DNA from: Bacilli bacterium
GTDB taxonomy: Bacteria > Bacillota_I > Bacilli_A > RF39 > UBA660
Assembly (NCBI GenBank): GCA_017462455.1
Contig: JAFTRC010000022.1
Span: 1-49,749, forward strand
Reading direction: 5' to 3'
DNA: 49,749 bases
Below, piece by piece: positions 5,401 to 10,111 of the stretch. Position numbers and translations under genes: made by a program. Below the pieces are notes generated by a model. The model was not told the origin of the DNA. It worked only from the letters and a program-made list of their open reading frames with translations, and did not search any database. How positions within the stretch are numbered: position 1 is the stretch's first letter; each line of letters starts with the position of its first letter.

Positions 5401-6081
5401 CTAAAACCTCCTGCTTAAATCATCTATACAATTATTAAATTTAGAATATGAAGTTTGTTCTAAATGATTTAATTCTAATCTAAATCTAATAAAATCTGGA
5501 ATTAATTCATTATATTTTACTTCTAATATTTTATCTTTTAAATAATGTACTCTTTTTTCTTTATTAAATAAATTATTATATTTATTCGTATGTCTTATAT
5601 TATAATCGAGAGTTATTCTAACATTCCCTAGTTTATATACATATGGTATTCTATCATACTCTATACAAATTACAGGTCTCAATAATTCTGTTTTCATTTT
5701 TAATATAAATTCATTTAATAATGGTTTATTATCCTTACTTATTTTTACATTACCACTTAATATATTATCTAAATCATCTCTTGTTATTTTAACGCTCTTT
5801 TTATTTGTTAATCCATTTACTTTAGATTTCTTTTCTAAATTAATATATGAATCATCATAATTATAAAATCTTATTCTATATTTCCATCTTTCGCTTATTC
5901 CATTTTTAACTTGGTTATATGACGTTTTATTATAGTTATCAAAATAAATACTTGAAATAGTATAAAAGTCATCTTTACAATTAGAATCTTTTTTAATTAA
6001 TCCTCTTAGATTATTGTTAATTATACAAAAATCACTATCTGTAATTTTATATTTTAATTCTTTTCTAAATTTTCTATTCAT
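5401..6081 (-). CDS. VTC (polyphosphate polymerase) domain protein
   Basis: RKELKY, Y.ISSIYFD, KYRIRFY, LEKK, YDRIPY, RITLD, ILEVKY, SYSKF motifs of the VTC/CYTH fold. Confidence 0.9.
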   Translation of the reverse strand: MNRKFRKELKYKITDSDFCIINNNLRGLIKKDSNCKDDFYTISSIYFDNYNKTSYNQVKNGISERWKYRIRFYNYDDSYINLEKKSKVNGLTNKKSVKITRDDLDNILSGNVKISKDNKPLLNEFILKMKTELLRPVICIEYDRIPYVYKLGNVRITLDYNIRHTNKYNNLFNKEKRVHYLKDKILEVKYNELIPDFIRFRLELNHLEQTSYSKFNNCIDDLSRRF

Positions 6082-7594
6082 TTTCTAAACTTTCTATATA
6101 ATCATCAAAGAATTCTAATCTCTTGTGTATCCAAGTTCTAACTTCTTCTATTTCTTTTTCCCAAGCATATTCTCCCCAAACACTAGAATCTCTTATAATC
6201 ACACCCTTAGATAAATTATTTATATATTCATCTAATAAAACATTTATATATTCTTCAGTTAAAATATTTTTTCTAAGAGACCAATATCTATCTATTAATA
6301 ATTGATTTGTTTTTGGAGCATCTTGATGATAGAACATACAGGATAATTTATCATATCCTAAAAGAGATATTCTATCCTCTCCTAAATCAAATCCATAACT
6401 AAATTCCATATCCCAAGGTTGAATATAAATATCACTTGATAAAGTATCAAAATAAAAATAGTTATTATATCCCATACAATTATCTATATTACTTGTAAAT
6501 GCATTGAAAATTGTAATATCTATATAATTTTTTAAATTAAAAGAGGATTCTATTACTTCATCGGTTATTTTAATTTCAGAATCATAATATTTTCTTATGC
6601 TCAATAGTAATTTTTTCCAAGTATCTGAATAAAAATCACTATTGTTTGGATATTTTATTTCAAAATTAGCATAACTATATTCATCTATATTTTTATATGC
6701 AATATTTGAATCGATATCAACCCAACCAATCATTTTAATTACTGCGCTCGTATCTTCTGTACTTGTTTTAGGTAAATTTAAATTTTTCCTGTTTATTGGT
6801 TCTGTAAATACATATAACCCCATATATTCATTGTTTATAAATACTTCAACAAATTCACTATACACATCTACACTAGTAAAATCATTAGAAATATCATTCC
6901 ACAATTTAGTAGATAAGACATTTCTTATTTTAGATTCATCTCTATAATTAGCATCTAAAATAAAAGAGTCTCCATTATAAAAATTAGAAATTTGTATATT
7001 TTTTTCATCAGTATACTTGTTATTATACATATTAATTCTATATGATTTTTTAGGTAACTCGGAAGAAGAAGCACCTCTAATATGAATCATACTATTGCTA
7101 GTTATAACTTTATTAACTTCTTCTGAATTTATATATTTAAAAGTAGATTCTACATCTTCTGTTGTTATAGAACCTTGTGTTGTTATACTAATTAATGGAA
7201 GGTTTGTTAATTGTATTTTTGTTTCGTAATAATATTTATCGTTATATATAATTATATCTATAGGTTCATCATACCTAACATCAATTATATTAAAAGTCTG
7301 ATCTTTAATTTTATATTTATATTCATTATCTAAATCTAATTTTAATACATAACTATTATTTTCATAATCATCTGATACATTATAATAATATATATTATTG
7401 TTTTTATCATAAACTGTATCAATATTATTTATTGTAAGAGAATTAATTAAATTTTCTTTTTGTTTTCTACCTTGTTTTATTTCTTTTATGCTTAAATATG
7501 ATAAAGATGTACCAAATATACTACATAAAATTAGAAATATTAAAATTAATATTAGCAATATAAAAACAGCTATTTTTAACTTATTACTATTCAT
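6074..7594 (-). CDS. CotH kinase family protein with N-terminal membrane anchor
   Basis: IRGASS..PKKSYR, D.SKIRN, VEVFINNEYMGLY...EP, NNYFY, PWDMEFSYG motifs. Confidence 0.88.
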   Translation of the reverse strand: MNSNKLKIAVFILLILILIFLILCSIFGTSLSYLSIKEIKQGRKQKENLINSLTINNIDTVYDKNNNIYYYNVSDDYENNSYVLKLDLDNEYKYKIKDQTFNIIDVRYDEPIDIIIYNDKYYYETKIQLTNLPLISITTQGSITTEDVESTFKYINSEEVNKVITSNSMIHIRGASSSELPKKSYRINMYNNKYTDEKNIQISNFYNGDSFILDANYRDESKIRNVLSTKLWNDISNDFTSVDVYSEFVEVFINNEYMGLYVFTEPINRKNLNLPKTSTEDTSAVIKMIGWVDIDSNIAYKNIDEYSYANFEIKYPNNSDFYSDTWKKLLLSIRKYYDSEIKITDEVIESSFNLKNYIDITIFNAFTSNIDNCMGYNNYFYFDTLSSDIYIQPWDMEFSYGFDLGEDRISLLGYDKLSCMFYHQDAPKTNQLLIDRYWSLRKNILTEEYINVLLDEYINNLSKGVIIRDSSVWGEYAWEKEIEEVRTWIHKRLEFFDDYIESLENE

Positions 7595-7659: not shown

Positions 7660-8580
7660 TTATTCTATTGTTATAATTCTTTCTTGAGTATCTGTATTAC
7701 CACTCGAATCTTGGGCTATGTATGTTATCGAATATTTTCCAACTTCACCAAATTTTATTGTTCCGCTTGTAGTAATATTGCATACGCCACTATTATCTGT
7801 ACAGGTGACTCCCTCTAATAAATCAAATTCAGTAACACTTGTACTTAATGTATTATTATCTGGAAGAGTTAATTGAGGATTCTCCTCATCGGTAATAATA
7901 ATATATCTAATTACCATATTAGAGTATCCATTATCATCTACAACTGTATAATATATTTTATATATTCCTAATTTGCTTGTATCTACGCTTTCCACAGAAC
8001 TATCATTTAAAGTAATACTAACATAAACTCTAGAAGTCAAATCAGTACCTTCACTAGACTCAGCAGTATAATTAACTTTAGTGTATGGTTGATTTATATC
8101 AATTTCTTCTACATAATTGCCATCTGAATTTTCAGGTAAATTTATATCAAAAATTATATCAGGTTTAAGAGAAGAATCAAGTGTTTGATTTAAAATTACT
8201 GTATATAAATAATCTCCATTTAATTTAGAATTAGAATTAGAATATTTATATCCTGCGCCTACATTTTCTATACTTATAACTAAGTTATTAGGATACAGCT
8301 CTTTTGTTTCTGGATTTTTAATATCAGCAGCTATCAATCCTTCATTTTTTAATTGCGCGAGAGTTATATAAGTAGTTTTTCCTCTTTCAGGCAATATGTC
8401 TAATTGTTTTAGCGATAAATCATATGCTGCATCTAAAATTGTATTTATTTGTTCATTAGAAATAGTTTCTTTACTTTTAACTAGAATATGTTCTACAGCT
8501 GGAAAAATTAAAATAAATATAACAGCTAATATCACTATCACAGCCAATAATTCTACTAAAGTGAAACCTTTATTTTTCAT
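7660..8580 (-). CDS. Type IV pilin-like protein with two C-terminal Ig-like (DUF5011-type) domains
   Basis: Start moved to ATG 8580 (SD GAGGTG): MKNKG|FTLVELLAVIVILAVI; VDTSKLGIYKIYYTVVD and GKYSITYIAQDSSGN repeats. Confidence 0.8.
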   Translation of the reverse strand: MKNKGFTLVELLAVIVILAVIFILIFPAVEHILVKSKETISNEQINTILDAAYDLSLKQLDILPERGKTTYITLAQLKNEGLIAADIKNPETKELYPNNLVISIENVGAGYKYSNSNSKLNGDYLYTVILNQTLDSSLKPDIIFDINLPENSDGNYVEEIDINQPYTKVNYTAESSEGTDLTSRVYVSITLNDSSVESVDTSKLGIYKIYYTVVDDNGYSNMVIRYIIITDEENPQLTLPDNNTLSTSVTEFDLLEGVTCTDNSGVCNITTSGTIKFGEVGKYSITYIAQDSSGNTDTQERIITIE

Positions 8581-8591
8581 AATACACCTCA

Positions 8592-9137
8592 CTATTTGTT
8601 AAATATACTTAATATACGAGCGAAATTAAATAATATTTGATTACTTTTTTTCATAGCAAAGCCTTTTTCAATAGCTTTACCACCTATAGTTAACGCGGAT
8701 ATAATTCCCATAATTGTTAAGGTCACTAACATATCATTTAAATTAGTTTTTTCAATTATTTTTAGAGCTATAACAGCACCAGTAGATCCTGAAATGATAC
8801 CACAGATATCTCCTACTACATCGTTACAAAAACTAGCAACTCTATCAGCATTCTTTTTTAATCTTACTGCCATTTTTGCTCCTTTAACTTTTCTTGCTGC
8901 CATTGAATGAAATTGTGACTCATCTGCAGCTGCTACTGCAACACCTACCATATCAAAAACAACACCTATAAGTACAAATACTAAAGTTAATATTATCCCA
9001 AAAAATATATTTAAATTCGGTATAGCAGTTTCTGATATAAAACTAAAAGCTACTGATATTACAAATGATAAAATTATTATTTGTGTTATCCATTTATAAT
9101 CAACTAAATTTTTTTTCTTCCTTTTTTCTCTTGACAT
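8592..9137 (-). CDS. oapA: OLE-associated protein OapA (CNNM/DUF21-like transmembrane protein)
   Basis: FDMVGVAVAAADE..FHSMAARKVKGAK.A..L.KNADRVASFCNDVVGDICGIISG, including the DxxxD motif; lies just downstream of an OLE RNA. Confidence 0.88.
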   Translation of the reverse strand: MSREKRKKKNLVDYKWITQIIILSFVISVAFSFISETAIPNLNIFFGIILTLVFVLIGVVFDMVGVAVAAADESQFHSMAARKVKGAKMAVRLKKNADRVASFCNDVVGDICGIISGSTGAVIALKIIEKTNLNDMLVTLTIMGIISALTIGGKAIEKGFAMKKSNQILFNFARILSIFNK

Positions 9138-9141
9138 ACAT

Positions 9142-9348
9142 TCACCTATTTAATTTTATTTCATTATTTTGAATATTATTTGGGATTTCTTTCTTTTGAT
9201 TTTTTATTCCTAATACTAGAAAAATTGTTAGTGAAATTACAAGAATATATAATATTACTACTATAACTATATAATTTTTACTTGTATCTTTTTTATCGAT
9301 ATCAGCAAAATCATTTGCCATATCTTTTGCATCTATATCGTTATTCAT
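9142..9348 (-). CDS. Small single-pass membrane protein (68 aa), unknown function
   Basis: Start moved from 9420 to ATG 9348 (SD AGGTGA). Acidic N-terminus, ~22-aa hydrophobic helix, then K/N-rich tail. Confidence 0.7.
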   Translation of the reverse strand: MNNDIDAKDMANDFADIDKKDTSKNYIVIVVILYILVISLTIFLVLGIKNQKKEIPNNIQNNEIKLNR

Positions 9349-9364
9349 CCTATCACCTATTATA

Positions 9365-9393
9365 ATTTTAACACAGATTATTAATTTTAACAA
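9365..9393 (-). promoter_or_regulatory. Putative sigma-A promoter for small ORF-oapA-pilin
   Basis: TTGTTA-17 bp-TAAAAT with TG extended -10, directly after the OLE terminator. Confidence 0.6.
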
Positions 9394-9401
9394 TGATAAA
9401 A

Positions 9402-9428
9402 CAAAAAAAGAAAAAGGCATAAGCCTTT
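9402..9428 (-). terminator. Intrinsic terminator after OLE RNA
   Basis: AAAGGC-TTAT-GCCTTT followed by TTCTTTTTTT on minus. Confidence 0.7.
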
Positions 9429-9439
9429 TAATACTATAT

Positions 9440-10018
9440 ATGGCGTTAACACAGTTAACTTTACGTCTTAGGTCAAGTTGGATTTCCCTAAATCTTACTT
9501 ATCGTTACCAATAAGCGGTTCCCCTTTAAAAGATTCAGTATATTGTTACCAAATATACTACTTGATTGCCACTTAGTACGCACTGCAATCCTATATTAAC
9601 AACACTCTAGGAGATTTCCTCACCATTTATTTATTATTAATTCTTTTTTGCAAACAGTATTTCATATTGCAAACTATGTAGATTCTAGCTATAAATTTAC
9701 TAGTTTGTTAACCAATAATCCCAACTACTCACGCAAGACAAGCTACACTACCCATAACTTTCGCCACAAGGTAGGTTTAATCCTAATTCGTATCTAGTCC
9801 ATCAGTATAAAACGTATAGGCCAAACACAAGTATAGGTCTCCACGAACGGTGGGTCATTTACATATGCCATTATGGATGCCCAACATTCTCATTTCCAGC
9901 ACTCACCCCTATCTGGGCGATAAAAGCAAGCACCAAAAGTTTCACAGATGTGCTCTTTGACGGATTTTTAGCCCCGCCTTCATAATAAATATAATGACTA
10001 GAATAATGTGCCATCAAC
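9440..10018 (-). ncRNA. ole: OLE RNA (ornate, large, extremophilic RNA), ~580 nt
   Basis: ORF-free, GC-enriched stretch with conserved OLE blocks in the expected order: GAAGGCGGGGCUAAAAAUCCGUCAAAGAGCACAUC, AAAUGACCC, GUAGUGUAGC, UGAGGAAAUCUCCUAGA, AGGAUUGCAGUGCGUACUAAGUGGCAAUC, AAAGGGGAACCGC. The 5' and 3' ends can pair (AUGGC/GCCAU), there are two GUAA-tetraloop hairpins (9497-9516, 9537-9559), and oapA is nearby downstream. Ends approximate. Confidence 0.92.
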
Positions 10019-10025
10019 AATTACC

Positions 10026-10054
10026 ATGCTATCATAAATTTAAATTTGTGTCAA
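10026..10054 (-). promoter_or_regulatory. Sigma-A promoter of OLE RNA
   Basis: TTGACA-17 bp-TAGCAT with TG extended -10; predicted start site ~10018-10019. Confidence 0.75.
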
Positions 10055-10111
10055 ATTAACATAAAAAGTTAAAATTTAGTTCATTCTTATTGCTTTTTTA
10101 TTAATTATATG

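Follow-up and report, generated by a model that had tools for sequence, protein, structure and literature searches.

An OLE RNA gene that is very probably its own transcription unit in a small, AT-rich genome of gut Bacilli

OLE RNAs are among the largest and best-conserved non-coding RNAs of bacteria that still lack an assigned biochemical function. Here we describe the OLE RNA gene (ole) found in a stretch of DNA of 49,749 nucleotides (the window), which is contig JAFTRC010000022.1 of the metagenome-assembled genome (MAG) GCA_017462455.1, a Bacilli bacterium of the lineage RF39, UBA660. The minus strand between positions 9402 and 10054 most likely holds a complete and functional OLE RNA gene organised as a transcription unit of its own, a reading to which we assign a probability of about 0.82. 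The RNA matches its family over the full length of the model, its fold is supported by abundant covariation, and the promoter and terminator signals at its two ends recur throughout the genus. Within its well-known RNA family it is an unexceptional member, and it leaves unchanged what OLE is; the distribution of OLE has already been surveyed across GTDB (PMC11332333). What the locus adds is genus-wide evidence for a free-standing ole, a series of relatives that runs from adjacent to unlinked ole and oapA (the gene of the membrane protein OapA), and the combination of a full-length RNA with the loss of the proteins OapB and OapC in very small genomes. The locus is useful in that it refines the rules of gene organisation for OLE and supplies comparative material.

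When all of the window was compared with Rfam 15 by cmscan, a single match rose above threshold, to the OLE family RF01071 on the minus strand. The match reaches 383.3 bits (E 3.5e-109; the gathering score of the family is 50), covers model positions 1-616 and is not truncated. The original prediction, made from the letters of the sequence, had placed a full-length OLE RNA in this gap between genes and expected a strong minus-strand match at about 9440-10018; the match obtained, at 9424-10030, bears this out. No credible open reading frame (ORF) spans the interval in the ORF check of the window, the 1.21-Mb assembly contains one copy of OLE, and the G+C content of the match is 36% compared with about 23% in the surrounding window. 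The features of the gene, in the direction of transcription, are these:

10049-10054, minus strand: -35 element of the ole promoter, reading TTGACA in all 20 genus loci with upstream sequence
10026-10034, minus strand: extended -10 element TGaTAGCAT (TG 10034-10033, TAGCAT 10031-10026), separated from the -35 by a 17-nt spacer
9424-10030, minus strand: OLE RNA, covariance-model match to RF01071
10014-10010 with 9444-9440, minus strand: terminal helix, 5'-AUGGC pairing with GCCAU-3', from the sequence and a minimum-free-energy fold (z = -2.3)
9965-9969, minus strand: A-rich loop CUAAAAAUC of the first OLE hairpin (AAAAA 9969-9965), read from the sequence
9687-9690, minus strand: L9.3-like loop bearing AGCU, a self-complementary tetranucleotide (dimer bridge B3, a kissing loop), from the sequence and the alignment described below
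9501-9553, minus strand: two GUAA-capped hairpins equated with P13 and P14.1 (loops 9549-9546 and 9508-9505), read from the sequence
9402-9429, minus strand: intrinsic terminator, a 7-bp hairpin AAAAGGC/GCCUUUU with loop UUAU (9429-9412) followed by UCUUUUUUUG, recognised by conservation in the genus

The fold of the RNA was assessed by projecting the Rfam consensus structure onto the window RNA and onto a MAFFT alignment (A1) of 38 OLE sequences from the genus and from related gut MAGs; the controls were the same structure with the 3' partners slid by 1-3 columns, and 500 shuffles. In the window RNA, 144 of the 153 projected pairs are canonical (70 A-U, 42 G-C and 32 G-U), so that A-U and G-U pairs dominate the stems. 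Standard pairs form in 92.2% of the cells of A1 compared with 37-44% in the slid controls, both partners change in 92 of the 151 pairs, and covariation scores 0.345 where the slid controls reach 0.06-0.09; none of the 500 shuffles reached any of the observed measures. The covariation thus shows that the window RNA adopts the conserved OLE fold, the A-U and G-U substitutions of the genus confirm that fold, and the earlier expectation that AT-rich stems would give useful covariation data held. All 17 helices are supported in A1, including helices 5 and 6, which we equate with P7 and P8; the names P7, P8, P13, P14.1 and L4 are our own assignments to stems and loops throughout. Since helices 5 and 6 are present and covary, the RNA is of the full-length type and not one of the reduced variants 1 and 2 discussed below.

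The loops and hairpins carry several of the details known from other OLE RNAs. The pairing of the 5' and 3' ends and the two GUAA hairpins, both named in the original prediction, are readily found in the sequence. The loop of the first hairpin, with a UAAAA core that is invariant in A1, is taken as L4, which would make it dimer bridge B1; in the cryo-electron microscopy (cryo-EM) structure of OLE the L4 loop forms an A-A dimer bridge, B1 (PMC12286853). The loop matching L9.3 reads AGCU in the genus and GGCC in sister MAGs, a covariation (GGCC/GAUC/AGCU) that has already been published as evidence for a kissing loop in a homodimer (PMC12286853). The first GUAA hairpin keeps a single-nucleotide bulge, and its GNRA loop is retained in 36 of the 38 rows of A1 as read by eye; the GGUAAC of the second is invariant. 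The P13/P14.1 region is where OapB docks in Halalkalibacterium (Bacillus) halodurans, and its binding determinants have been described (PMC7936274). A kink-turn (k-turn) assigned by eye to J4a/5 with J5/6, whose joining sequences are largely conserved in A1, was dropped, the cryo-EM structure pairing J4a/5 with J6/7. In one genus genome, G014, the tip of the first GNRA hairpin is deleted (locus L020, G014:C1:286106-286700; A1 columns 514-524) and the remaining RNA is intact. The deleted tip is the OapB site elsewhere, and this genome is one of those in which ole is unlinked from oapA.

The evidence for a promoter of its own comes from comparison within the genus, in the 20 loci for which upstream sequence was available. 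The spacer is exactly 17 nt in all 20, the TG extension is found in 19, the -10 hexamer matches TATAAT at 4-6 of 6 positions, and the -10 ends at a fixed 10-12 nt before a conserved (A/G)UGGCAC in 20 of 20 loci. The genes upstream vary among these loci while the promoter geometry stays constant. It is important to point out that the pattern alone is not significant, with 21 promoter-like sites in 2 kb compared with 13.5 expected; the ole promoter is significant because it is conserved across the genus. A promoter immediately before ole is a common feature of Bacillota loci and not special to this genus. Of 64 OLE loci from many Bacillota, 48 have a promoter-like element with 9 or more of 12 matches at this distance from where the RNA begins, and the element of Clostridium argentinense scores 12 of 12.

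At the other end, a hairpin followed by a T-run lies 4-23 nt after the conserved GCCA in all 21 genus loci that were counted, compared with 2.9% of 1,500 random windows of the source genome held to the same hairpin and T-run criteria. Across the genus the stems of the predicted terminator covary, the 21 loci having at least 10 distinct stem sequences and folding energies (ΔG) of -3.3 to -10.4 kcal/mol. The promoter and intrinsic terminator read in the original prediction are therefore not peculiar to the window, being kept in 20/20 and 21/21 genus loci. A terminator directly after OLE is also usual in AT-rich gut MAGs of Bacilli or Tenericutes, even where oapA follows 26-60 nt later. It is found in some Oscillospiraceae in which the ole-oapA locus is split, and it is generally absent from compact loci of Clostridia.

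Taken together, these signals outline a simple transcription cycle for ole. Transcription would begin 3-8 nt before the conserved AUGGCAC, from an extended -10 promoter of the sigma-A type (TTGACA, 17 nt, TGnTAGCAT), and would stop at an intrinsic terminator some 15 nt past the conserved GCCAU. We infer a primary transcript of about 615 nt, from about 10018-10022 to about 9402-9410, both ends being placed solely by the positions of promoter and terminator. A near-consensus promoter at a fixed distance from the start of the RNA makes processing unnecessary, and a transcript of this kind would need little or none. The clean predicted ends are also convenient for cloning and for in vitro transcription of an RNA of native length.

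The strongest argument on the same question comes from the distance between ole and oapA in the genomes of the genus. In the window the two genes lie on the same strand, 286 nt separating the end of the OLE match from oapA, and this is the shortest gap in the genus; in most other genus genomes the gap is about 0.3-8.7 kb. In three genomes (G014, G007 and G018) ole and oapA are on different contigs, and in G014 ole lies at least 62 kb from the nearest contig end. At another site these three genomes keep an intact module of deacetylase gene, small membrane-protein ORF, oapA and pilin-like gene, and their ole is followed by a Smr-like, a TPR-like plus MutS, or a ComEA-like gene, as judged from sequence. 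Because it is unlinked from oapA, ole must be expressed and terminated independently in these three, and the window carries the same signals. The upstream side tends to stay in the genus, with a glycosyltransferase gene followed by ole, and the flanks of ole in the window are cell-envelope genes (a deacetylase, glycosyltransferases and a pilin-like protein). Overall, ole is very probably its own transcription unit, and the independent expression of ole and oapA is at least possible, and necessary in the three unlinked genomes. The linkage of the two genes slides and is lost within a single genus; therefore, co-transcription is not required for their partnership.

Downstream of the terminator, the same strand carries a second set of signals and genes:

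9359-9393, minus strand: promoter-like element TTGTTA (9393-9388), 17 nt, TGuTAAAAU (TAAAAT 9370-9365), overlapping a TATAAT
9142-9348, minus strand: gene of a 68-amino-acid single-pass membrane protein, with a strong ribosome-binding site (RBS) AGGTGA at 9358-9353
8592-9137, minus strand: oapA, 181 amino acids, matching PF01595 (CNNM) at 34.4 bits over residues 49-180, above the cut-off
7660-8592, minus strand: gene of a protein with a prepilin-type N-terminus and an Ig-like domain, abutting the end of oapA

OapA would be made from this separate operon, which starts 54 nt past the terminator under an extended -10 promoter of its own and would comprise the small single-pass membrane protein, OapA and the pilin-like protein. 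The original prediction of a separate promoter for the small ORF and oapA gains from conservation: L015 and L018 share the 25-nt block of -10 and RBS, tgtgttaaaattataataggtgata, without a difference, L016-L017 have it nearly unchanged, and 15 of 21 genus loci show TGnTAnnnT between the terminator and whichever gene comes next. In G007, a genome with unlinked ole and oapA, an element of this type also stands before the small ORF.

Several observations weigh against a fully free-standing ole. The -10 of the window, TAGCAT (4 of 6), is among the weakest in the genus, and the window hairpin is weak as well, its 5-bp core having a ΔG of about -5.7 kcal/mol. Since the hairpin is weak and the next gene on the same strand is only 54 nt away, some transcripts of ole may well run on into the small ORF and oapA. 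In sister gut Bacilli MAGs (L035, L037, L040, L044, L051, L053, L064, L066 and L071) a hairpin and T-run also follow OLE, and oapA begins 26-60 nt past the terminator (about 26-90 nt past the OLE model), which leaves little or no room for a promoter. In these MAGs oapA probably depends on leaky termination for its expression, which would be a simple means of setting a high ratio of RNA to protein, and the ancestral arrangement may thus couple oapA to ole in this way. Finally, the source assembly is 82% complete, so that the absence from it of OapB, OapC and dxs (the gene of DXP synthase) is not proof, and the genus-wide absences carry that part of the argument.

Most of these points feed one alternative, in which a strong ole promoter drives ole together with the small ORF and oapA, the weak hairpin acting as an attenuator and the second promoter being minor. 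The short, AT-rich hairpin, the distance of 54 nt on the same strand from the T-run to the next start codon and the sister MAGs without promoter space would all suit coupled expression, as would the second promoter itself, which has 9 of 12 matches, a level expected by chance in DNA of this composition. However, the -10/RBS block past the terminator is conserved whichever gene follows, the same element stands before the small ORF in G007 without an upstream ole, and ole and oapA are unlinked in three genus genomes. We regard coupled expression as the most serious of the alternatives and still as doubtful for this locus.

A second alternative places the start of transcription further upstream. 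A conserved box, CATATAAT, is found on the minus strand upstream of the ole promoter:

10103-10111, minus strand: CATATAAT box, reading CATATAATT in the window; it follows immediately on the deacetylase stop codon and precedes the -35 by 48 nt

The sequence CATA(T/G)AAT occurs 8-49 nt upstream of the -35 in 16 of the 20 genus loci (L002-L021), whichever gene lies upstream, and as the exact CATATAATA in 13 of them. In the form CATATAAT(ATA), the box is also located near or inside the ole promoter in distant MAGs (L031, L035, L037, L040, L049, L053, L064, L066, L078 and L103), and in three distant MAGs it sits inside the promoter spacer as the perfect palindrome CATATAATATG. The box word is not enriched genome-wide or in the intergenic DNA of the source genome. 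It is possibly an operator or a second, auxiliary promoter element. The -10 consensus of sporulation sigma factors is CATAnnnTA, and the CATATAAT box fits it. As a sporulation-sigma promoter, the box is nevertheless not supported: no consistent -35 was seen by eye, hairpins intervene in several loci, it lies inside the spacer in some MAGs, and genome-wide enrichment is lacking.

Transcription of ole also, or mainly, from upstream, by read-through from the deacetylase gene or from a promoter at the CATATAAT box, with processing of a long precursor, is unlikely. It would draw on the presence of the box in 16/20 genus loci and in distant MAGs, on SigK and a SigE-like factor encoded in the genome with Spo0A in 26/27 genus genomes, on the published correlation of OLE with sporulation (PMC11332333), and on the view that the OLE RNA of H. 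halodurans is processed from operon transcripts (PMC9723947). Set against this are the hairpin and T-run that separate box and -35 in several loci, the lack of a consistent -35 partner by eye, the position of the box inside the spacer in three distant MAGs, as would be expected of an operator, and the absence of enrichment in the intergenic DNA of the source genome; moreover, the near-consensus promoter at a fixed distance makes processing unnecessary.

That the locus is a decaying OLE relic in a shrinking genome, its promoter and terminator being chance likenesses in AT-rich DNA, is very improbable: although the genome is reduced, without OapB, OapC and dxs, and promoter-like words are common at 23% G+C, the RNA fills the full model at 383 bits, keeps 36% G+C against the 23% background, is 82-88% identical across the genus between flanks that cannot be aligned, occurs in 23 of the 25 genus genomes in which OLE was counted, and shows abundant compensatory changes, a covariation that contradicts decay.

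H. halodurans C-125 is the organism in which OLE has served as a genetic and biochemical model. The window RNA belongs to the same full-length family with its conserved blocks and stems, and in both organisms a promoter lies upstream of ole and oapA lies downstream on the same strand, encoding a small CNNM-like membrane protein with a DxxxD motif. In H. halodurans, ole is situated within a large operon and its RNA is presumably processed, yet the gene is also reported to have a promoter of its own (PMC9723947). The original prediction had set the stand-alone window ole against a long operon in that species; the operon is real, and the contrast was overstated given the ole promoter described there. 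Differences do remain. Unlike its counterpart, the window ole has a promoter on one side and a terminator on the other, it is separated from oapA by a second promoter and the gene of a small membrane protein, its flanks are cell-envelope genes, and its stems are mainly A-U and G-U; whereas H. halodurans has OapB and OapC, the genus has no homologues of either, and the source genome is without dxs.

Similarly, the location outside the isoprenoid/xse gene cluster, which the original prediction had called the usual one, stands, and dxs is absent; the word 'usual' does not, as that cluster is not universal. The isoprenoid cluster was set aside as a yardstick, the ole-oapA locus of Clostridium ihumii lying between genes for a major facilitator superfamily transporter and an ATP-binding cassette transporter. 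The cluster is a frequent neighbourhood of ole and not a rule. Among the 27 genus genomes in which partner proteins, dxs and Spo0A were counted, dxs is absent from the source assembly and from 22 others (23/27); it is present in G003, G007, G014 and G018, on contigs other than that of ole. Three of these four dxs-bearing genomes are those in which ole and oapA are unlinked, a hint that they may form a sub-clade whose genes differ in content and arrangement.

Split loci are also known elsewhere. In Oscillospiraceae and Butyricicoccus-type Clostridia, L065, L075, L082, L081 and L089 have ole-oapA gaps of 2.4-5.1 kb, and strong GC-rich terminators follow ole in L065, L075 and L082 as well as in L074 (0.5-kb gap). 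The genus shares with them a separation of ole and oapA by kilobases and a terminator after ole; it differs from them in belonging to another phylum-level group with another style of genome, and in a gap that varies continuously from 0.29 kb to unlinked.

The proteins that accompany OLE in H. halodurans appear to be depleted in this lineage. A profile for OapB (YbzG, a KOW-motif protein) was built from four homologues in the map-infA interval of OLE-bearing Clostridia, one of which was confirmed against PDB 7K9B (E 1.4e-11); it found nothing in the six-frame translation of the source genome (best E 0.34) or in the 27 genus genomes. In the source genome map and infA are direct neighbours, as they are in 29 other genomes of the phylum-level sample, and the only KOW domains (Pfam) of the source genome are in L24 and NusG. 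OapC fares no better: PF01248, the L7Ae family to which OapC/YbxF and YlxQ belong, matches in 0 of 27 genus genomes, whereas the B. subtilis positive control matches. The particle of this lineage appears to be reduced to the RNA and OapA, without OapB and OapC. By homology, the OLE RNA would dimerise and dock on a dimer of OapA in the membrane, and by homology with H. halodurans, where the complex is defined by localisation of the RNA to the membrane through OapA and by phenotypes under cold, alcohol and Mg2+ stress, the particle may serve stress or ion (Mg2+) homeostasis there. The retained features of the OapB site, the P13-like bulged hairpin and GGUAAC, probably serve the architecture of the RNA here. 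The lineage is in effect a natural experiment, a full-length RNA in genomes that lack homologues of two of the three proteins needed by H. halodurans.

A bolder proposal for this family of gut bacteria, with genomes of roughly 1 Mb that bear Spo0A and SigK, joins these strands into a minimal OLE particle, of full-length RNA and OapA alone without OapB, OapC and MpfA, its RNA encoded by a free-standing gene under a CATATAATATG-like box and with no need of linkage to oapA. We put this forward tentatively, as a reading on the doubtful side. If it is true, the OapB-site and k-turn sequences serve the architecture of the RNA and are not there to bind proteins, and a regulator specific to ole exists that is possibly linked with sporulation.

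Reduced forms of OLE have been described as 'variant 1' (TANB77) and 'variant 2' (RF39), in which P7-P9 are shortened or lost, variant 1 often being without the OapB site (PMC11332333). Like these variants, the OLE RNAs of the genus have a clade-restricted distribution, in uncultured bacteria of the gut whose genomes are reduced and for the most part lack OapB and OapC; unlike them, they keep both GNRA hairpins, bulge included, as well as the stems equated with P7 and P8. Shorter copies do occur among close relatives: two sister genera of the same family have OLE copies of 541 and 577 nt, and L071 and L048 in A1 are also short. The sister-genus copies form a family-level reduction series beside the full-length form.

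The protein encoded by oapA agrees in its CNNM match with the published description of OapA. Four hydrophobic segments, as in a membrane protein, and a DVVGD (DxxxD) motif can be read by eye, and no domain besides CNNM was found (no CBS, no CorC). This agrees with the traits that define OapA, a length of about 180-200 amino acids, four predicted transmembrane segments and weak CNNM/DUF21 similarity. A protein search gave 454 relatives, and of the best 80 loci, from which context was taken, most have OLE about 20-200 nt upstream, a synteny across Bacillota that supports orthology. OapA is the only CNNM match in the assembly, which therefore has no MpfA; an anticorrelation of OLE with MpfA has been published, and the absence here fits it.

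Homologues of the small membrane protein, with the core KNYIIVxxILYIxVIxLxxxLVLGIKNQK, precede oapA in L005, L008, L010, L015-L018 and L143-L145. They have variable acidic tails at both termini and a length of 68-150 amino acids, and no curated family matched the small protein. The small ORF stands directly before oapA also when a deacetylase gene sits between ole and the small ORF, and it belongs with oapA and not with ole because it recurs before oapA even when ole is unlinked. It is a candidate OapA-associated protein. The order of oapA and then the pilin-like gene is likewise kept in the genus, including genomes with unlinked ole (L143-L145), and gyrB comes next in G007 and G018. The pilin-like gene is probably co-transcribed with oapA, and from this conserved order it seems that OapA is co-expressed with a protein of the cell surface or of pseudopilin-like type.

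The source MAG (1.21 Mb in 68 contigs) belongs to a lineage of gut MAGs of about 0.9-1.6 Mb and about 23% G+C that are variously labelled Bacilli, Tenericutes or Mollicutes; the closest records come from rabbit, mouse, sheep and human gut. The phylum-level group, sampled with 299 genomes of 135 genera, contains only small genomes (0.7-3.4 Mb), including mycoplasma-sized ones, and OLE was found in four genomes of that sample (G121, G297 and G316 among them), all of the window's own family (4 of its 6 sampled genera). The infA gene of one genome in the phylum-level group contains a TGA in frame.

A phylogenetic correlation of OLE with sporulation proteins has been published (PMC11332333), and the gene content of the genus fits this. 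Spo0A is present in 26 of 27 genus genomes (C50:9783-10094 in the source), SigK in the source genome scores 316 bits, above the NCBIfam cut-off (C64:23525-24232), and a SigE-like (C40:2086-2772) and a SigH-like factor (C25:32414-33025) are also encoded, as is CotH in the window at 6074-7594. These would be unusually small genomes to carry endospore regulators.

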